A program made the translations under genes and the position numbers. From an uncultured Dehalococcoidales bacterium (GTDB lineage Bacteria > Chloroflexota > Dehalococcoidia > Dehalococcoidales > JAFGLR01), in assembly GCA_964547925.1 (NCBI GenBank), contig CAZJQF010000003.1:11875-46468 (forward strand): a stretch of DNA of 34,594 nt. Direction: 5' to 3'. Each line of letters starts with the position of its first letter. Within the stretch, counting starts at the first letter, position 1. Shown in pieces: positions 6,427-20,523 of this stretch. A model generated the notes under the pieces. The model saw nothing but the letters and a program-made list of their open reading frames with translations, was not told the DNA's origin and made no database searches.

Positions 6427-6532
6427 GGAATCCTAAAGCTGTAATAAGCATAATTATTACATAAAAAAATATAGGAAGCTGTGAACCGTTACCTGTATAT
6501 GGTCACTTGGGTAGCGGGGAGCGAATAGTGAA

Positions 6533-6559
6533 ACCGACCGGTAAACGGTCGGTTTTTTT
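6533..6559 (+). terminator. Intrinsic terminator hairpin with U-tract
   Basis: ACCGACCG (6533-6540), loop GTAAA, CGGTCGGT (6546-6553), then a T-run to 6559. It is preceded by AAA, so the element is symmetric. It ends 6 nt before the ATG at 6566. Confidence 0.65.
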
Positions 6560-7391: not shown

Positions 7392-9626
7392 ATGGTAAAT
7401 ATTTTGATAGGCTGTCTAGGTTTCTTTATTACCCACGCTTTTGACGTTGTGGCCCTGAAAGGTATTAAAAAAGTAAAGCCGGTAATCTGGCTTATCGGAA
7501 ACGGACTAATTGCTTATTCATTAGTAATGTTATGCCTTTCCGAGCCCAATATAGGACTACCCGGCTGGTTAGCCTGGGTAGGCTGGCCTTTAGTCCTCTT
7601 TGGGATATATTTTCAGGTTGCTGCGATTACCACTGATTTACCGGTTAAGAAGACCTATGTCGAATCGGGAACCAGCAACCAGTTAATAAAGACGGGATTT
7701 TTTGCGATGGCCCGCCACCCCGGTGTCATCTTCTTCATTATATTAACAATCGGTTTAACACTCATTTCCGATTCGTTATTAATGCTAATTGCCGTAGCGG
7801 TATTCGGCGCCCTGGACATTATTCTCGTGACCGTTCAAGATGTGTATTTTTTCCCCAAGATGTTCGCCGGTTATGAAGAATACCGGAAAGAAACGCCAAG
7901 TATTATTCCGACGATTGAAAGCATCAAAGCTTGTATTAGAACTATAAAACGACCCCAGATAAAAACAAAGGAGGCACAAACAATGATCAGCACCGATAAC
8001 ATTTTTATTAACGGAAGCAAGGAAGAAATCTGGCAGCGGTATTGTGGTTTTCTCGATTTAAAAATGAATGATTTCATGAATATTCAGAGGAGACTGCTTC
8101 TTGAGCAAATCGAGCTGTTGAATAAGTGTGAGCTGAATACAAATATTATGAAAGGCGTGAAGCCCCATACCATTGAAGAGTTTCGTAATAAAGTACCTCT
8201 GACTACTTACAATGATTATAATGCGTTCTTTGCGAAACGCCGCAAAGGAATATTACCGGAGAAACCTTTAACCTGGATGCACACAGCCGGTCGTTCCGGG
8301 GAATTCACAAAGTGGATACCCGTTTCGGAAAGACGGTATAAAGCCATGGGTGATTATATTATTGCGGTAATCCTGTTAAGTACCAGTAAAAGACGCGGGG
8401 AATTCAATTTAAAGAAACACGATAGAATCCTTTACGCTCTGGCCCCGCCCCCCTTTATGACCGGAACCTGGGCAAGACGTCTTGAAGAGGCTTTACCCGT
8501 TAGTTTCCTCCCGTCACTCGATGACGCAGAAAAAATGTCCTTTTCGGATAGAACTCAGGAAGGCATTAAAATTGCCATGGAAGACGGCATGGAAATTATC
8601 GGGGGAATGTCGAGCGTCCTGCTTGCCATCGGTCAGAGTCTAAAGGAAAAGAAAAGCAAGATTGAATTGTTACCGTTATTGAAAAAACCCAAGAAACTCG
8701 GCCGGGTATTAAAGGGGATATTAAGAAGTAAATTAGCCGGTCGTGCTCTTTTGCCGAAAGACTTGTGGTCGATGAACGGTATTATGGCCGGCGGTGCGGA
8801 TACCGCAATTTACCGGGAAAAAATCAAGGAGATGTGGGGTAAACTTCCCCTGGATGTATACGCTTTCACGGAGGGCGGTCCGATTGCCGCACAGACCTGG
8901 GCTTATAACGGAATGACCTTCTTCCCCAGTCTCAATTTCTATGAATTTATACCGGAATCAGAAATGATTAAGTCGAAAATTGATCCCTTCTATACTCCAT
9001 CAACCGTTACATTGGATGAAGTCCAGCCGGGTAAAAATTACGAACTGGTTATCACCAATCTATTAGGCGGTCCCCTAGTCCGGTATCGTAACGGAGACAT
9101 CGTACAAATCACTTCATTACGGGATGAGAAATATGGTATAGATATTCCGCAGATGGAGTTCCATTCCAGAGCCGAGAATATTATCGATATCGCCGGGTTC
9201 ACCCGCCTGACCGAAAAAACAATCTGGAAAGCTATCGAAAACTCAGGTATAGACTATAAAGATTGGACTGCCCGTAGAGAAGGCAAGGATAAGTCCACGC
9301 TACATATTTATCTTGAACTGAATAAAAACGGTATCGATAAAGATGAAATTACCACCAGCATTCATCAAAAACTGGCGGAGCTGGATACGGACTATGCAAA
9401 TATCGAAGCTCTATTAAGTATGAAACCGTTACAGGTAACCGTATTACCCAACGGTGCGTTTAAGAATTACTCTGCGAGACAGCAGGCATCCGGTGCCGGT
9501 TTGGGGAAGTTAAAGCCGCCTCACATTAATCCGTCAGAACAGACACTCGAATCTCTGATTAATGGGTCAGAATTACTTACGGCTATCGTTCCGTCTCCGG
9601 ACGAATATGAAAAGGTAACCAAATAA
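7392..9626 (+). CDS. Fusion protein: N-terminal ICMT/PEMT-like membrane methyltransferase module plus a GH3-family acyl-acid amido synthetase (adenylating) module
   Basis: aa 1-190 are polytopic, with LIKTGFFAMARHPGVIFF...FFPKMFAGYEEYRKETPSIIP (the ICMT-family RHP...FG..Y..Y...T..IP signature). aa 198-744 carry GH3 signatures FRNKVPLTTYNDY, TAGRSGEFTKWIP, DVYAFTEGG and LVRYRNGDIV. An in-frame ATG at 7983 with AAGGAGG at 7968-7974 sits exactly at the domain junction. Confidence 0.75.
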   Translation: MVNILIGCLGFFITHAFDVVALKGIKKVKPVIWLIGNGLIAYSLVMLCLSEPNIGLPGWLAWVGWPLVLFGIYFQVAAITTDLPVKKTYVESGTSNQLIKTGFFAMARHPGVIFFIILTIGLTLISDSLLMLIAVAVFGALDIILVTVQDVYFFPKMFAGYEEYRKETPSIIPTIESIKACIRTIKRPQIKTKEAQTMISTDNIFINGSKEEIWQRYCGFLDLKMNDFMNIQRRLLLEQIELLNKCELNTNIMKGVKPHTIEEFRNKVPLTTYNDYNAFFAKRRKGILPEKPLTWMHTAGRSGEFTKWIPVSERRYKAMGDYIIAVILLSTSKRRGEFNLKKHDRILYALAPPPFMTGTWARRLEEALPVSFLPSLDDAEKMSFSDRTQEGIKIAMEDGMEIIGGMSSVLLAIGQSLKEKKSKIELLPLLKKPKKLGRVLKGILRSKLAGRALLPKDLWSMNGIMAGGADTAIYREKIKEMWGKLPLDVYAFTEGGPIAAQTWAYNGMTFFPSLNFYEFIPESEMIKSKIDPFYTPSTVTLDEVQPGKNYELVITNLLGGPLVRYRNGDIVQITSLRDEKYGIDIPQMEFHSRAENIIDIAGFTRLTEKTIWKAIENSGIDYKDWTARREGKDKSTLHIYLELNKNGIDKDEITTSIHQKLAELDTDYANIEALLSMKPLQVTVLPNGAFKNYSARQQASGAGLGKLKPPHINPSEQTLESLINGSELLTAIVPSPDEYEKVTK

Positions 9627-12617: not shown

Positions 12618-15113
12618 TTGAACATATATACATCTATACCGCTTTTCAGCGCAATAATATATTTCGTTCTGATATTTTTTGTTTTAAACTCCGGGGTCAG
12701 TAGTACTAAACGAGCCTTCATTCTTTACTTATCTGCAACAATGCTCTGGAGCATCTCGGCATTCATTATTCACGGTAATTTTTTCCCCCAGAATACCCTA
12801 TTGATTAACCAGATAGTAGTTGCAACTGGTTTTATAGTGCCTATTGCATATTATTATTTTATATCTGCATTCACCAATAAAGTCTCCCCACTATTGATCA
12901 TATTAAGTATTTTTTGTTTGGTGACTGTATTGATATTAGATTTCGGTGGGTTTATAGTAAAAAGCTCAGTCGTGGTTGATAACGTACTTTACGTTAAGAT
13001 GAGCATTTTCTTTATGTTAAGTTATCTGGTAACGTTTGTGTTTGTCGGTTTTGGTGTATATTATTTGGTAATCAAATTCCGGAAATCAAACGATCCTTTA
13101 GAACGCAATAGAGTTTCTTACTTGATATTCGGTGTGATCGTGCTAATGGTTTTTAATATCGGTAACTTTTTTGATGCTACATCCAAATATCCCATTGACC
13201 ATGTTGGAAATGTTTTTTACGCTCTGATAATAACCTATACCATCATGAGATATCAGTTATTGAATATCAAGTTTATCTTCCGGAAAGGCTTGACCTACGT
13301 ATTGTTATTACTACCCATGGTGGCTCTTTATGTAGGAATCCTGATTGCCGGTCTGCATTATTTCCCCAGTATTTCGCCCGTTGCAATCGGTATATTTACT
13401 ACGGTAATGGTACTGTTATTGGTTATCGCTTTCCGTACTCTGAATCACGGGGCACAGGAATTAGTCGACCATATATTTTACCGTGAGACATACAAGCACC
13501 GTCAGCTCTTATTAAATATCAGTAATAAACTGGGCGGCGTAATTAACCTGAGCCAGTTAGCCGATGAGATATTACCAACTCTTTGTAAAGCCCTGAGAAT
13601 TTCGCGTGCCCAGTTACTCCTGAGGGATAATAACGGAGGGTTTTCCGCTCAATTTGCTTATCCCGAGATCGAAGAAACGGAAACGGCTCTCGCACTGGAT
13701 TCGGATAATCCGATAATAGGTTGGTTGGAAAAGAAAAACAGACCGTTTGAATTAAGAGAATTGGAAAATATTCCGGAGTTCAAAGGTTTATGGCAATCCG
13801 AGATAGATGAAGTTACCTCAACGAAACTGGGACTGTTTTCTCCGGTTAAAAATAAAGGTGTTCTAACCGGGATATTTGCATTAGGGAAAAAACAGTCCGG
13901 TGTATATTCACAGGAAGACCTCGAGATGACAATGGCGGTGGCCGGTCAGGCCGGTCTGATTATCGAAAATGCCCAGCATTATTCACAGGCATTGTTAAAA
14001 GCCAATACCGACGGACTAACCGGGCTTTATAACCACCGGCATTTCCATGAAAGGTTGGAACAGGAAATTGCCCGCAGTTCACGTTTCGGGACGGTGTTTT
14101 CAGTCATAATTGCGGATATCGATTTATTTAAAGTCTATAACGATAATTACGGGCATCTTGCCGGTGATGAGGTTCTCCGGCGTATCGGAGAATATATCAA
14201 GAGTTCAATCCGGAGCATCGATATTGCTGCCCGGTACGGCGGCGAAGAGTTTGGCGTTATTTTACCGGAAACACGTTTAATGGATGCCCAGGTTGTCGGA
14301 GAACGTATTCGTAAAACAATTGAAGCAAAGACTAATTCACGTGCCATGCCCGTGACCATAAGTGTCGGATTGGCCAGCTGGCCGATAGATGGTGTTATGA
14401 AAGAAGAACTTATCAACCGGGCAGATAAAGCTTTGTACTTTGCTAAACAAAGCGGGAGAAACCGCGTGTGTTTATCCACGGATGTCGTTGATAAAAATCC
14501 ATTACAAAGTGAAAAAGAACTGGAAGTTAATCCCAAATCGCTGAGTATGATTTATGCTCTTGCGGCGACTGTCGATGCGAAAGACCATTATACCTACGGT
14601 CATTCACGGAAAGTAAGCGAGTATGCCGTAGCTCTCGCAGAGGGGGCAAAACTGCCCCAAGAGAAACATTCCATAATCAGGGCTGCCGGATTATTGCACG
14701 ATATCGGAAAAATCGGTATTCCGGATTCTATTTTGAATAAAAAGGAACCCCTTTCCCGTGACGAGTGGGAACCGATAAAAGCCCATCCTCAATTAGGCGT
14801 GGCCATAATCAGACATATTGTGGATTTAACCGATTGTCTGCCGGCTATTTTACACCACCACGAGCACTTTGACGGCAGCGGTTATCCGGCCGGTTTAAAG
14901 GGCAAAAATATACCTATAGAAGCACGCATTTTATCAATAGCCGATGCCTATGAGGCGATGACTTCGCCGCGCGCGTATAGAAAACAGATGACGACCGATG
15001 AAGCGATTGTCGAATTAAAGAAGTGTGCGGGAACACAATTCGACCCGGAGTTAGTCCAGGTTTTCTGCAAACTTCTGGAAACCACACCATCGTGGCGTAC
15101 TACTCAGGGCTAG
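12618..15113 (+). CDS. Membrane sensor protein: 7TM N-terminal domain, GAF, GGDEF diguanylate cyclase, HD-GYP phosphodiesterase
   Basis: About 270 aa of TM helices (HisKA_7TM-like) and a GAF-like region. GGDEF domain: DGLTGLYNHRHF and RYGGEEFGVIL, with RSID (RxxD I-site) 5 residues upstream. HD-GYP domain: HSRKV...LLHDIGKIGIP...HHHEHFDGSGYPAGL. TTG start. Confidence 0.85.
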   Translation: MNIYTSIPLFSAIIYFVLIFFVLNSGVSSTKRAFILYLSATMLWSISAFIIHGNFFPQNTLLINQIVVATGFIVPIAYYYFISAFTNKVSPLLIILSIFCLVTVLILDFGGFIVKSSVVVDNVLYVKMSIFFMLSYLVTFVFVGFGVYYLVIKFRKSNDPLERNRVSYLIFGVIVLMVFNIGNFFDATSKYPIDHVGNVFYALIITYTIMRYQLLNIKFIFRKGLTYVLLLLPMVALYVGILIAGLHYFPSISPVAIGIFTTVMVLLLVIAFRTLNHGAQELVDHIFYRETYKHRQLLLNISNKLGGVINLSQLADEILPTLCKALRISRAQLLLRDNNGGFSAQFAYPEIEETETALALDSDNPIIGWLEKKNRPFELRELENIPEFKGLWQSEIDEVTSTKLGLFSPVKNKGVLTGIFALGKKQSGVYSQEDLEMTMAVAGQAGLIIENAQHYSQALLKANTDGLTGLYNHRHFHERLEQEIARSSRFGTVFSVIIADIDLFKVYNDNYGHLAGDEVLRRIGEYIKSSIRSIDIAARYGGEEFGVILPETRLMDAQVVGERIRKTIEAKTNSRAMPVTISVGLASWPIDGVMKEELINRADKALYFAKQSGRNRVCLSTDVVDKNPLQSEKELEVNPKSLSMIYALAATVDAKDHYTYGHSRKVSEYAVALAEGAKLPQEKHSIIRAAGLLHDIGKIGIPDSILNKKEPLSRDEWEPIKAHPQLGVAIIRHIVDLTDCLPAILHHHEHFDGSGYPAGLKGKNIPIEARILSIADAYEAMTSPRAYRKQMTTDEAIVELKKCAGTQFDPELVQVFCKLLETTPSWRTTQG

Positions 15114-16626: not shown

Positions 16627-16654
16627 TTGACATCTATTCAATAACTGTTAGAAT
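16627..16654 (+). promoter_or_regulatory. sigma70 promoter with extended -10 (TTGACA-16 nt-TGtTAGAAT) for the kamA operon
   Basis: TTGACA at 16627-16632 and TG at 16646-16647, followed by t and TAGAAT at 16649-16654. The 12-nt direct repeat TGAAAATATATT occurs at 16593-16604 and 16617-16628. Confidence 0.55.
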
Positions 16655-16729: not shown

Positions 16730-18055
16730 ATGACATCGGTAGAATTGAAGACTCAAACCGCTACTATTTCCGAGGATGAACCCCCCAGTAAAACCACGGC
16801 CTGGAGGAGTACGCAAGAAGACGAACCTCCGGGCAAAAGTGCTGTCCCCAAACGCAGGTATTTTGCTCATGTTTCCGACCAGGATTGGACGAATTGGAAA
16901 TGGCAATTCAAGAATCGTATCACTACTGTCGATGAATTAGCGAAATACATTCCCCTTTCAGTCGAAGAACAGATTCAACTCAGGCTGGTTTCTATCCATT
17001 ACCCTATGGCGATTACGCCTTATTATTTATCGCTTATCGACCCTGATGACGCGGCGGATCCCATCAGAATACAAGCTATTCCCAATGTTTTAGAAGTCAC
17101 GATGGGTTGTATGGGTATGGAAGACCCGCTGGAAGAGAAAAGGGATTCCGTAGTACCCGGACTGGTGCACCGCTATCCTGACCGTGTTTTAATGGTACTG
17201 ACGAATGTCTGTCCTATGATGTGCCGCCACTGTACCCGAAAGCGTGAGTGGAAGCATGGCACCTGGATCAGGCCGCAAGAAGAAGTGGATGCGATGTTAA
17301 CCTACATCCGTCGGCATAAGAGTGTTCGTGACGTTATTATTTCCGGCGGGGACCCGTTAACGTTGTCAACGCGGCGGCTCGAAGAGGTAATTTCTGCCTT
17401 GCGAAGAATCAACCATGTGGAAATTATTCGTATCGGCAGCCGTTATCCGGTAGTATTACCATTCCGTATCGATAACGAACTATGTGATATGTTATCCGAG
17501 TACGGACCGATATGGTTGAATACTCATTTTAATAATCCCCGCGAAGTTACCCCGGATTCGGCAAAAGCCTGCGACCGGTTGTTGAGGGCCGGCGTTCCGG
17601 TAAATAACCAGACCGTTTTGTTACGCGGTGTCAACGATTCGGTGGAAACAATGAAAAAACTGGTGCATAACCTGTTGCGTATAAAAGTTCGTCCCTACTA
17701 CTTATTCCAGTGCGATGAGGTGCAGGGCACCGAGCACTTGCGCACTCCTGTTGAAACCGGTATTAAAATTATCGATGGTTTAAGAGGACATACCTCCGGG
17801 CTGGCGGTACCCGCCTTTGTTATAGACTTACCTTTTGGCGGCGGTAAGGTGCCTTTGCAGCCGAACTATGTATTGGCCCAGGATAACGGTGAGTTGTTGT
17901 TGCGGAATTATAAACATAATCTTTATCGTTTTCGTAATCCTAAAAATCAATCAATAACCGCATCAATACAAAATAACGAGCATAAGTTAACTGAAGCACT
18001 TGTAACACAATATGCGTTAGAAGGGAAACCAGATGCGGATAGGGTTATCGTATGA
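16730..18055 (+). CDS. kamA: Lysine 2,3-aminomutase (KamA-family radical SAM/PLP enzyme)
   Basis: CPMMCRHCTRK (CxxxCxxC), GGDPL, YYLFQCDEVQGTEHLR and VIDLPFGGGKVPL (PLP-lysine motif). Both substrate-binding Asp positions are retained (QCD, IDLP). About 40-aa N-terminal extension before the conserved W..W.WQ..N block. Confidence 0.85.
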   Translation: MTSVELKTQTATISEDEPPSKTTAWRSTQEDEPPGKSAVPKRRYFAHVSDQDWTNWKWQFKNRITTVDELAKYIPLSVEEQIQLRLVSIHYPMAITPYYLSLIDPDDAADPIRIQAIPNVLEVTMGCMGMEDPLEEKRDSVVPGLVHRYPDRVLMVLTNVCPMMCRHCTRKREWKHGTWIRPQEEVDAMLTYIRRHKSVRDVIISGGDPLTLSTRRLEEVISALRRINHVEIIRIGSRYPVVLPFRIDNELCDMLSEYGPIWLNTHFNNPREVTPDSAKACDRLLRAGVPVNNQTVLLRGVNDSVETMKKLVHNLLRIKVRPYYLFQCDEVQGTEHLRTPVETGIKIIDGLRGHTSGLAVPAFVIDLPFGGGKVPLQPNYVLAQDNGELLLRNYKHNLYRFRNPKNQSITASIQNNEHKLTEALVTQYALEGKPDADRVIV

Positions 18056-19040
18056 TTTAAAAGAAGCAATTACTTCCGGAAGAGATAATCTTCCGGAAGA
18101 TGCTTTCGAAGAATACGATCATCCGGCGACCATCAATTATATTGCTTCTGCCATCGAACATGCCGGTAATGAAGTCGTCAGGTTGGGTGGCGGAAGACAA
18201 TTCATTGAAAACATTCTCCGTGAGAAAACGGACATGGTTTTTAATATTTCAGAAGGAAGGGGTACTTTTCGCAGCCGAGAGGCTCAAGTACCCTCAATTC
18301 TGGAGATGCTTGACATTCCCTATACCGGTGCAGACCCCGAATGTCTGGCGGTATGTTTGGATAAGCCGTTAACCAAACAACTGGTGACTCTTGCCGGACT
18401 GGCAACACCTCCCTGGATAGTTATAAAAAACCGGGAGGAGTTACATTCAGTAAAATGGGATAAAGTTGCGTTCCCATTAATTGTCAAACCCGCTTTCGAA
18501 GGTTCCAGTAAAGGGGTTCGCCTGAATTCTGTAGTGAGGAACAAAGAACAGGCTATTGAAGTAACCGGAAAGACGCTGGATCTTTACCGCCAGCCGGTAA
18601 TGCTGGAAGGTTTTGTTCAAGGCGACGAAGTAACTGTCGGAATCGTGGGTAACTCTCCACCCAGGATAGTCGGTATCATGCGTATTCTGCCTAAAAAACA
18701 GACGGAGCATTTTGTATATTCTCTTGAAGTAAAACGGGACTGGCAAAACATGGTGGAATACGAATGCCCGGCCCGCCTGGATAAATCCATTCTAGAAAGA
18801 ATAGCCGCCGACAGTATAAAAGCCTTTACCATGTTAGAATGCCGTGATTTTACCAGAATTGATTTTCGTATCGGTGCCGACGGGACTCCTTATTTTATCG
18901 AAATTAACCCGTTACCCGGATTGGGTGATTACAGCGACCTGATAATTATGGCGATAAAAATGGGCTGGAGTCATGAATCGGTAATACAAGCTGTACTTGA
19001 AGCGGCATTGGAGAGATACCGGTTGTGTGCGCAAAAGTAA
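18033..19040 (+). CDS. D-alanine--D-alanine ligase-family ATP-grasp enzyme (paralogue 1)
   Basis: 335 aa. Pre-ATP-grasp N-domain (RIGLSYDL...EEYDHPATINYIASAIEHAGNEVVRLG) and ATP-grasp core (FPLIVKPAFEGSSKGV, MLEGFVQGDEVTVGIVGN, YFIEINPLPGL). Overlaps kamA by 23 nt. Confidence 0.8.
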   Translation: MRIGLSYDLKEAITSGRDNLPEDAFEEYDHPATINYIASAIEHAGNEVVRLGGGRQFIENILREKTDMVFNISEGRGTFRSREAQVPSILEMLDIPYTGADPECLAVCLDKPLTKQLVTLAGLATPPWIVIKNREELHSVKWDKVAFPLIVKPAFEGSSKGVRLNSVVRNKEQAIEVTGKTLDLYRQPVMLEGFVQGDEVTVGIVGNSPPRIVGIMRILPKKQTEHFVYSLEVKRDWQNMVEYECPARLDKSILERIAADSIKAFTMLECRDFTRIDFRIGADGTPYFIEINPLPGLGDYSDLIIMAIKMGWSHESVIQAVLEAALERYRLCAQK

Positions 19041-20029
19041 CTATAGTATATAACGACCCGATTCCCGGCCGGTATCAAAATACCGGTGAAGAAAAAGCCG
19101 TCCTCGGCGTTTTAGACTCGGTTAATGCCGTAAAAAAGGCCTTAACGGAACTCCGTCATGAAGTGAACCTTTTGCCTTTAGCTTTGCCTTTAGAACAGGC
19201 TCTCACGAAGTTAGACAACCTGTCTACGGATATCGTATTTAATCTCTTCGAAGGTTTTCCGGGCTTTCCGGAAACGGAGATGCTTATTCCTCAGTATTTA
19301 GCGAAAAATAATATTATTTACACCGGTTGTTCAAGTGAATCACTGACACTGGCTCTAGATAAAGCCAAAACTAAAGAATATTTAATGAAAGCAGGAATCG
19401 CGACACCCGATTTTCAACTGATGACGGCGGATACTCTTGCTTCTTTTCGGTTGAAATATCCCTGCATAATCAAACCATTCGGTGAAGATGCCAGCCATGG
19501 TTTGAACGAAAACAGTGTCGTTTATGATTTCGCCGGTCTGACGAGGCAGGTAAATCTAGTTTGTTCACAATACGGCGGGCAGGCGCTGGTTGAAGAATTA
19601 ATCGAAGGCCGGGAATTTAATGCCACAGTTATGGGTAACGTCGAGCGTATAGTTTTACCGGTTGGAGAAATCACCTATAATTTACCGCCGGGAAAACCAA
19701 AAATACTGACATTCGATGCCAAGTGGGAGCAGAATAGCTTATATTATAAAAGCACCCCGGTTATCTGTCCTGCGAAGATAGATGACTCGGAGAAAGAACG
19801 TATCAGAAAAGTAGCTTTGGAAGCATTCAAGATAATTATTGGCCGGGGCTATGCCAGAGTGGATATGCGTTTAGATAACCAAAATAGAGTAAATGTTCTT
19901 GAAGTTAATCCGAACCCCGATATTTCACCCAACACCGGTGCGGCCCGGCAGGCCAAAGCTGCCGGGATGACTTATGCTCAGTTTATCGATAGAATAATTT
20001 CGTTGGCGCGGGAAAAAGGGAAGGTATGA
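19025..20029 (+). CDS. D-alanine--D-alanine ligase-family ATP-grasp enzyme (paralogue 2)
   Basis: 334 aa with the same architecture (VTIVYND...NAVKKALTELRHEVNLLPL; YPCIIKPFGEDASHGL; VEELIEGREFNATVMGN; VLEVNPNPDISP). GTG start; overlaps the previous gene by 16 nt. Confidence 0.8.
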   Translation: MCAKVTIVYNDPIPGRYQNTGEEKAVLGVLDSVNAVKKALTELRHEVNLLPLALPLEQALTKLDNLSTDIVFNLFEGFPGFPETEMLIPQYLAKNNIIYTGCSSESLTLALDKAKTKEYLMKAGIATPDFQLMTADTLASFRLKYPCIIKPFGEDASHGLNENSVVYDFAGLTRQVNLVCSQYGGQALVEELIEGREFNATVMGNVERIVLPVGEITYNLPPGKPKILTFDAKWEQNSLYYKSTPVICPAKIDDSEKERIRKVALEAFKIIIGRGYARVDMRLDNQNRVNVLEVNPNPDISPNTGAARQAKAAGMTYAQFIDRIISLAREKGKV

Positions 20030-20523
20030 TACCGAAACCGGAGAATATAATTATCTCTTTAACAAAAGTTCACAAGTCCGCCGTGATGGATATCTTACGC
20101 GTCACTTCGGAATTCAAGCCTATGGAAGTGGATACAGCCGAAGATCTTATAGACTTTTACTTAAAGGATGGTCTTTCCTCAGGGTACCATCATCTGGCAG
20201 CAATAACAGAGTCAGAAGTAACAGGTTATATCTGTTATGGACCGACACCATTAACGGAAAGTACTTGGGATGTTTACTGGATGGCAGTTACACCCGGGAA
20301 AAAGGGACAGGGTATCGGTACTTCATTATTAAGAACCGCGGAAAATGAGATTAGCAAGCGAAAGGGACGGATAATACTTATCGAGACCTCAGATATAGCG
20401 TCCTATGAACCTACCAGAAAATTTTACGAGCATATGGGCTACGAGGTAATAAGCCGAATTCCAGATTTTTATGCCTCAGGTGACGGTCTGGTTGTCTTCC
20501 ATAAAAGACTGGACCGGGTTTAG
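20026..20523 (+). CDS. GNAT-family N-acetyltransferase (165 aa)
   Basis: WMAVTPGKKGQGIGTSLL (Q/R-x-x-G-x-G acetyl-CoA motif) and FYEHMGYE. ATGA start/stop overlap with the upstream gene. Confidence 0.8.
   Translation: MIPKPENIIISLTKVHKSAVMDILRVTSEFKPMEVDTAEDLIDFYLKDGLSSGYHHLAAITESEVTGYICYGPTPLTESTWDVYWMAVTPGKKGQGIGTSLLRTAENEISKRKGRIILIETSDIASYEPTRKFYEHMGYEVISRIPDFYASGDGLVVFHKRLDRV

Follow-up and report, generated by a model that had tools for sequence, protein, structure and literature searches.

Beta-lysine is encountered in free-living microbes mainly as an N-epsilon-acetylated osmolyte, as an intermediate of lysine fermentation, and as a building block of a few antibiotics. Here, we address a four-gene stretch, hereafter the cassette, at positions 16730-20523 of a 34,594-nt segment of DNA from an uncultured Dehalococcoidales bacterium (the window, which means the whole segment analyzed). 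The cassette encodes a lysine 2,3-aminomutase-type enzyme, two ATP-grasp ligases (Lig1 and Lig2), and a GNAT acetyltransferase, and we propose that it makes an N-acetylated small amide or peptide that contains beta-lysine, a reading toward which we lean modestly.

Several described systems resemble the cassette in part. AblA/AblB of methanogens, which makes N-epsilon-acetyl-beta-lysine as an osmolyte, and kamA-yodP of Bacillus subtilis likewise pair an aminomutase that has lysine-binding residues with a GNAT encoded nearby, and there too acetylation of an amine neutralizes its charge. The AblA-type model TIGR03820 was also the best model for the cassette aminomutase, but the score fell under the equivalog cutoff. 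AblA/AblB is a two-gene unit, whereas the cassette contains two intervening ATP-grasp ligases and a GNAT that is not of the AblB type, so that its product, unlike N-epsilon-acetyl-beta-lysine, would be expected to carry extra amide bonds. In EpmB/EpmA, a KamA-family enzyme likewise supplies beta-lysine for an ATP-dependent ligation; however, the ligase is a paralogue of lysyl-tRNA synthetase (LysRS), and EpmB makes the (R)-isomer and is without the LAM_C domain.

Three further systems are alike in logic, without homology in the key steps. N-acetylglutaminylglutamine amide (NAGGN), made by Ngg and AsnO, is an N-acetylated, dipeptide-type compatible solute that is built nonribosomally by a GNAT and an ATP-grasp ligase; in contrast to the cassette, Ngg fuses both activities, the building blocks are glutamine, and there is one ligase and no aminomutase. 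Mycosporine-like amino acids are formed by MysC and MysD, two ATP-grasp enzymes, one of them Ddl-like, which add amine partners sequentially, but to a 4-deoxygadusol core and with neither a radical-S-adenosylmethionine (SAM) enzyme nor a GNAT, whereas the cassette would work on beta-lysine. The aerobactin enzymes IucD/IucB/IucA/IucC share with the cassette an enzyme that modifies lysine, a GNAT, a pair of paralogous ATP-dependent ligases, and, in some clusters, an exporter of the major facilitator superfamily (MFS); however, their ligases are NRPS-independent siderophore (NIS) synthetases rather than ATP-grasp enzymes, and N-hydroxylation leads to a hydroxamate siderophore.

A search of the open-access full-text literature found no description of the cassette and no characterized pathway of this composition, in line with the original prediction, and targeted reading of the transposon study of Desulfovibrio G20, the sigma-54 regulome studies, and the Pelobacter genome study found none either. 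The cassette would be a pathway for a beta-lysine-derived metabolite that brings known enzyme families together in an undescribed combination.

Organization of the Cassette

The cassette consists of four overlapping open reading frames (ORFs) on the + strand, preceded by a promoter-like site:

16627-16654, + strand: sigma-70-type promoter-like site, TTGACA-16 nt-TAGAAT with a TG extension (consensus match only)
16730-18055, + strand: KamA-type radical-SAM/pyridoxal phosphate (PLP) lysine 2,3-aminomutase, 441 aa, ATG start
18033-19040, + strand: Lig1, an ATP-grasp ligase of the Ddl fold, not a D-Ala-D-Ala ligase, 335 aa, ATG start
19025-20029, + strand: Lig2, a second, anciently diverged ATP-grasp ligase of the Ddl fold, 334 aa, GTG start
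20026-20523, + strand: small GNAT N-acetyltransferase, 165 aa, ATG start, with a QGIG acetyl-CoA motif

The ORF list gave overlaps of 23, 16, and 4 nt, in that order, and the operon coordinates and overlaps originally described were exact. Purine-rich stretches resembling Shine-Dalgarno sequences (GAAGGGA, GGAGAG, and GGGAAGG) were located before the internal starts, inside the respective upstream gene, and no terminator-like site stood out between the cassette genes. The sigma-70-like site, approximately 75 nt upstream of the aminomutase gene, matched the consensus at 11 of 12 positions and was the best site of the region; the 220-nt leader contained no riboswitch or other Rfam element. At the other end lies a convergent typA gene, whose stop and that of the GNAT gene overlap by 4 nt. 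The genes that flank the cassette in the window (GGDEF-HD, flavin adenine dinucleotide oxidase, TypA, YgjP, and S41 protease) were retained only in the closest relative, L001; thus, the four genes are the unit, and the flanks are not part of the system. None of the four proteins matched a PADLOC defense-system model.

An Aminomutase of the Lysine Type

The window aminomutase carries Radical_SAM and LAM_C domains (Pfam), and its sole solved relative is the lysine 2,3-aminomutase of Clostridium subterminale (Protein Data Bank [PDB] entry 2A5H; E = 4e-137), to which it is 55.8% identical over 362 aa. Alignment to 2A5H confirmed all the motifs that had been read from the sequence: CxxxCxxC, D293 (QCD), D330 (IDLP), and K337 (GGGK). 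More broadly, the Fe-S cluster cysteines C125/C129/C132, R134, D293, D330, and the PLP lysine K337 (2A5H numbering) were invariant in 89/89 aligned aminomutases linked to the cassette, which were drawn from Dehalococcoidia, Desulfovibrio, Desulfobacterales, Pirellulales, Woeseia, and others. From the 2A5H structure, we take R134 to bind the alpha-carboxylate of lysine and D293 and D330 to bind its epsilon-ammonium group. Because R134, D293, D330, and K337 are invariant, and because the cassette enzymes share 50-56% identity with the characterized C. subterminale enzyme, the earlier assignment of beta-lysine as the likely product was strengthened, and we regard it as a well-supported prediction.

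Of the curated models, the lysine 2,3-aminomutase model TIGR03820 fitted the window protein best (482.3 bits; cutoff, 525.4), and the glutamate 2,3-aminomutase (442 bits; cutoff, 650), arginine 2,3-aminomutase (418 bits; cutoff, 600), and EpmB (234.7 bits; cutoff, 369.3) models scored lower; the generic KamA model TIGR00238 was the only one passed (346 vs. 199.2 bits). TIGR03820 was likewise the top curated family for all 11 cassette aminomutases tested, which came from five lineages; the best of these reached E = 1.7e-148, only marginally above the window protein, and we take all 11 to be under the cutoff. Judged by these scores, the window enzyme belongs with the lysine-type 2,3-aminomutases, in a clade that lies just beyond the curated equivalog.

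The window aminomutase has an acidic, proline-rich N-terminal extension of approximately 45 residues (window 16730-16865), which the Clostridium enzyme lacks; the motif EDEPP occurs in it twice, and "EPP" was retained in the cross-phylum consensus.

In Clostridia, KamA catalyzes the first step of the lysine-to-butyrate pathway, and the cassette aminomutase might be thought to open such a lysine fermentation or catabolic route. However, neither a beta-lysine 5,6-aminomutase nor a 3,5-diaminohexanoate dehydrogenase, cleavage enzyme, or ammonia lyase was encoded in the window or recurred in the 93 loci of our accessory-gene census, for which all flanking ORFs were clustered; we give this explanation next to no chance.

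Two Ligases with Altered Substrate Sites and a GNAT Unlike AblB

In Pfam, Lig1 and Lig2 each matched only Dala_Dala_lig_C (PF07478) and generic ATP-grasp models; the Dala_Dala_lig_N domain was not detected in either. The two proteins share approximately 27% identity with each other and 20-30% with solved Ddl/Van enzymes. A fold search with the AlphaFold model of Lig1 (predicted local distance difference test [pLDDT], 95.8) returned only Ddl/Van ligases, at template modeling (TM) scores of 0.75-0.85 and with the nearest at 20-26% identity, and no closer characterized ligase. Domains, fold, and mutual identity together bore out the prediction of two paralogous enzymes of the D-Ala-D-Ala-ligase type between the aminomutase and the GNAT.

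Public annotations name the ligases "D-alanine-D-alanine ligase," and in databases their top-ranking names, like the solved structures nearest to them, are those of Ddl/Van ligases, as would be expected if ordinary peptidoglycan ligases happened to lie beside an Abl-type osmolyte pair. However, Lig1 and Lig2 fell short of all curated Ddl cutoffs, with only 174.5 and 146.2 bits on the model NF002378 against a cutoff of 243. In a survey of 82 Lig1 and 75 Lig2 sequences aligned to Escherichia coli DdlB (DdlB numbering), the residues for ATP, Mg, and the transition state (K97, K144, E180, E187, R255, D257, E270, and N272) were conserved in both ligases with few exceptions, as in Ddl and VanA, whereas the residues of the D-Ala1 and D-Ala2 sites were replaced. 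The GGxSxE motif of Ddl, with E15, was missing from both, and H63 was replaced by Glu in 157/157 sequences. In Lig1, L282 was an invariant Asp, E68 was an invariant Arg, and K215/Y216 could not be aligned, with Leu or Val in place of Y216; in Lig2, S150 was changed to Ala, Y216 to an invariant Trp, G276 to Asp, and L282 to Gly. The S150/Y216 triad of Ddl was thereby not retained. In addition, no mur or fts cell-wall genes were found in the window or among the recurrent neighbors of the 93 loci, KamA and the GNAT always bracket the ligase pair, some organisms have it fused to KamA, and the GNAT is not AblB-like. These results render ordinary Ddl enzymes next to an Abl pair scarcely credible. 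Lig1 and Lig2 should instead be active amide-forming ligases for substrates other than D-alanine, and the additional acidic residues in their altered sites suggest that these substrates are cationic.

The GNAT gave no match to the AblB-type model and was under every curated cutoff; it matched only RimI/AAC-type models, and these below their cutoffs (RimI, 45 vs. 86 bits). Its sole close solved relative is PDB 2R7H (E = 1.3e-34), a structural-genomics entry named "putative D-alanine N-acetyltransferase," which presumably comes from Desulfovibrio/Oleidesulfovibrio G20.

Gene Fusions and a Related Tandem System

We searched exhaustively for Lig1 among 1.84 billion cluster representatives and obtained 797 clusters (50% identity) at E <= 1e-30. 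Among the best 150 cluster representatives were 16 Lig1-Lig2, three KamA-Lig1, and one Lig1-KamA fusions, the last of which was found in two independent sources. As associations read from sequence, they link Lig1 with the product of the aminomutase, and Lig2 with Lig1. A natural Lig1-Lig2 fusion was predicted to be well folded (pLDDT, 93.4; predicted TM score, 0.69); this model has no bearing on a heterodimer.

Another 24 of the best 150 Lig1 clusters were tandem proteins whose N-terminal ATP-grasp half had diverged further. We considered these "X-Lig1" proteins as reversed Lig2-Lig1 fusions and rejected this assignment, since no aminomutase or GNAT was present within 6 kb; they belong to a different system. 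Such tandem double ATP-grasp proteins were encoded in loci L094-L102 (e.g., L102 6001-8118 and 8115-9407; P0247, with 675 aa, is an example), and in seven of the approximately nine loci with room for it, the tandem gene was followed by a Peptidase_S58 gene, of a family that includes the DmpA/BapA beta-aminopeptidases. This pairing hints that the tandem-ligase clade makes peptides with unusual N-terminal residues.

We also considered a graspetide/microviridin-type cluster of peptides synthesized ribosomally and modified post-translationally and rejected it: the ligases are of the Ddl type and not of the RimK type, there is no conserved small ORF, and R134, which binds a free alpha-carboxylate, is kept.

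Conservation across Lineages

A scan with one genome per species yielded 249 aminomutase relatives; we retained the best 80, every one of them from Dehalococcoidia. Sixty-seven of these species-representative loci were assessable, their sequence extending 3.9 kb or more beyond the start of the aminomutase gene, and in 63 of the 67, the four genes were all present within 5 kb and in the same order; the complete cassette was not present in L018, L032, L046, and L065. The Lig1/Lig2 junction was overlapping in 61/63 loci, with a median of -16 nt, the same as in the window; junction lengths were taken from the longest ORFs, by which overlaps are somewhat overestimated.

Outside Dehalococcoidia, we looked up GNAT homologues found in a search with the 2R7H sequence, and the order aminomutase-Lig1-Lig2-GNAT was observed at 8/8 of them. 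The cassette was present on the chromosome of Desulfovibrio mangrovi, in a locus with a GNAT that shares 99% identity with 2R7H, in a Desulfobacterales metagenome-assembled genome (MAG), in a Pirellulales MAG and related contigs, and in Woeseia sp.; one further contig was among these look-ups. In the Woeseia locus L085, Lig2 was split into frameshifted ORFs, and in L091, the aminomutase was called as two ORFs; both are long-read assemblies, and we read these breaks as frameshift errors. The module is kept intact in at least four bacterial phyla, so that the conservation of the cassette, the lack of which would have told against the original prediction, was established both within and beyond Dehalococcoidia. 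Between lineages, the core genes share 31-50% identity. At the distant loci, the first ligase was always the Lig1 orthologue and the second always the Lig2 orthologue; thus, the duplication of the ligases predates the spread of the module.

In locus L032, a complete Dehalococcoidales chromosome (CP070645), a cassette-type aminomutase (8001-9317) with an upstream MFS gene was found without ligases or GNAT within 8 kb; leucine-rich-repeat, PIG-L deacetylase, and enoyl-CoA hydratase genes were instead downstream of it. The rest of the module may have been lost or relocated in this lineage.

Accessory Genes in Relatives

Genes for transport and hydrolysis recurred next to the cassette in the census. 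A membrane transporter of the MarC/NAAT family, which passes TIGR00427, was encoded directly downstream of the GNAT in 30/93 loci, and an efflux-type MFS protein was encoded directly upstream of the cassette in 14/93. A second GNAT followed by an M20 deacylase of the ArgE/DapE type was present in 11-12 of the 93 loci, and a GNAT-deacetylase fusion of approximately 580 residues was present in 17, including those of Desulfovibrio mangrovi and Woeseia; its deacetylase domain was nearest to acetylpolyamine amidohydrolases (1e-66 to 1e-70). All of these accessory genes stood in one row in L004. Together, they point to a small molecule with an acetylated primary alkyl amine that is transported and hydrolyzed again. 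Across Desulfovibrio, Woeseia, and Dehalococcoidia (L082 8629-10386; L085 6505-8001; L004 14232-15995), the GNAT-deacetylase fusion was approximately 60% identical, and thus more conserved than the core genes; this could reflect strong constraint or recent transfer.

The transporters also bear on an aerobactin-like route, in which the GNAT would act first to make N-acetyl-beta-lysine and the ligases would join two such units, or one unit and another amine, to a di- or tricarboxylic acid for export, for instance as a metal-binding compound. The composition resembles that of IucD/IucB/IucA/IucC plus an exporter, and the directly adjoining MFS and MarC/NAAT genes would fit it. However, an N-hydroxylase or other source of strong chelating groups is missing, the ligases are from another superfamily than the NIS synthetases, the match of the MFS protein to the exporter model was very weak (39.6 bits against a cutoff of 600), and no transporter lies beside the window cassette. 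Such a route is quite unlikely.

The same neighbors weigh on a protein target, which the original prediction had kept as an option. In this explanation, the cassette would serve a post-translational beta-lysylation like that of elongation factor P, with the ATP-grasp ligases in place of EpmA; KamA is homologous to EpmB, and RimK and LysX are ATP-grasp enzymes that modify proteins. However, the EpmB score of the window enzyme was far under its score on the lysine aminomutase model, and LAM_C, which is typical of free-lysine aminomutases, was retained; the Ddl fold of the ligases joins two small molecules; and the linked genes encode small-molecule deacylases and transporters. No conserved gene for a target protein was found nearby, and no EpmA-type LysRS-like gene was found in the window or among the recurrent neighbors of the 93 loci. 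Modification of a protein is now very improbable.

In two Desulfovibrio loci, a sigma-54-like element (TGGCAT-N5-TTGC) was located directly upstream of the aminomutase gene (L082 4457-4471 and L087 4488-4502), and a sigma-54 activator gene preceded the cassette in both. These observations are among those that would suit a homo-oligomer or polymer, in which Lig1 would make beta-lysyl-beta-lysine, Lig2 would extend it, and the GNAT would cap the terminal amine to give a polyamine-like polycation or nitrogen store; the chain would be comparable to the beta-lysine chain of streptothricins, with ATP-grasp enzymes as its builders. The core module contains no gene for a second building block; the invariant acidic residues (Glu at H63 in both ligases, Asp at L282 in Lig1, and Asp at G276 in Lig2) suit cationic substrates in both subsites; and the linked deacetylase is of the polyamine type. 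However, nothing indicates processivity, two anciently diverged ligases fit two different bonds at least as well, and the count of the sigma-54 motif in the L082 and L087 loci was not above chance. We consider a homo-oligomer unlikely.

Other Features of the Window

Some further features of the window were recorded apart from the cassette:

1373-2476, - strand: 367-aa ORF whose match to the acetate kinase model was confined to the C-terminal half (profile positions 182-348 of 392); perhaps an acetate/propionate-kinase-like gene that has diverged or been truncated
6465-6548, + strand: c-di-GMP-II riboswitch (RF01786), which at 65.1 bits exceeds the gathering score
6875-12379, + strand: an unusual gene row downstream of the riboswitch, with a 124-aa ORF unmatched in Pfam, a 744-aa fusion (PEMT-like/GH3 acyl-amido-synthetase), and genes for a ThiF/E1-like and a B12-binding radical-SAM protein
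12618-15113, + strand: 831-aa membrane protein with seven transmembrane helices (7TM), GAF, GGDEF, and HD-GYP-type HD domains; its gene is a short distance upstream of the cassette region

In the Pirellulales loci L083 and L093, too, GGDEF proteins are encoded ahead of the cassette, which is probably a coincidence.

Proposed Pathway and Its Implications

The predicted ATP-dependent ligation of beta-lysine, to partners or to itself, followed by N-acetylation, gained support from the conservation of the cassette, the fusions, and the linked deacylases and transporters. Between these options, we hold two sequential ATP-grasp ligations with hetero-partners, which would give an N-acetylated, beta-lysine-containing small amide or peptide, to be somewhat probable. 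The chemistry, the order of the steps, and the partners given here are those we infer from the observed residue conservation, gene order, fusions, and neighboring genes. First, the aminomutase, in which the substrate-binding residues were observed, would convert free L-lysine to (3S)-beta-lysine. Second, Lig1 would consume ATP in making an acyl-phosphate, from which one amide bond would follow; because some organisms have Lig1 fused to the aminomutase, it would probably act directly on beta-lysine. Third, Lig2 would make a second amide bond and thereby add a third building block or a second beta-lysine. Finally, the GNAT would acetylate a primary amine that is still free, most likely that at the epsilon position of the beta-lysyl chain, since the linked deacetylase is of the acetylpolyamine-amidohydrolase type. 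From the MarC/NAAT and MFS transporters, the M20 deacylase, and the GNAT-deacetylase found in relatives, the compound appears to cross the membrane and to be broken down again. Transport and breakdown fit a metabolite that is soluble, for example a compatible solute or a cationic compound that is secreted, and not a wall precursor or a protein modification. By analogy with N-epsilon-acetyl-beta-lysine and NAGGN, the role of a compatible solute would be attractive.

Several points weigh against this proposal. Because the aminomutase scored below the equivalog cutoff (482 vs. 525 bits), its specificity may have shifted, for instance toward some other basic amino acid. Some of the metagenomic fusions could be gene-calling artefacts. 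The window and L001 have no accessory transporter or hydrolase, and transport and turnover thus rest on the other relatives. Finally, the cassette was equally kept in Dehalococcoidia from freshwater, groundwater, and fens, which is not expected of a purely salt-induced osmolyte. Two details of the original prediction, a specific link to salt stress and acetylation as self-protection, found nothing in the analysis that speaks for them.

A bolder possibility, which we offer tentatively and rate as rather doubtful, is a new class of primary metabolite: an ATP-grasp-built beta-lysine oligomer or N-acetyl-beta-lysyl peptide that would be put to use as a cation of the polyamine kind, a solute, or a nitrogen store by anaerobes that dominate their environments (Dehalococcoidia and sulfate reducers), by Planctomycetes, and by Woeseia, and that would be cycled by dedicated polyamine-type deacetylases and transporters.

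The cassette appears to be present in a genetically tractable Desulfovibrio, and the hypothesis is therefore directly testable. In Oleidesulfovibrio alaskensis G20, its counterpart is probably Dde_3041-3044, beside the cutC paralogue Dde_3039. If true, it would provide a function for a large clade of misannotated "D-alanine--D-alanine ligases," which comprises approximately 800 clusters (50% identity, E <= 1e-30) and includes at least one unrelated system, and it would place the structural-genomics GNAT 2R7H in a natural substrate context. The near-universal keeping of the cassette in the small genomes of Dehalococcoidales, together with its presence in sulfate reducers, Planctomycetes, and marine Woeseia, points to a widespread and so far undescribed metabolite derived from beta-lysine.

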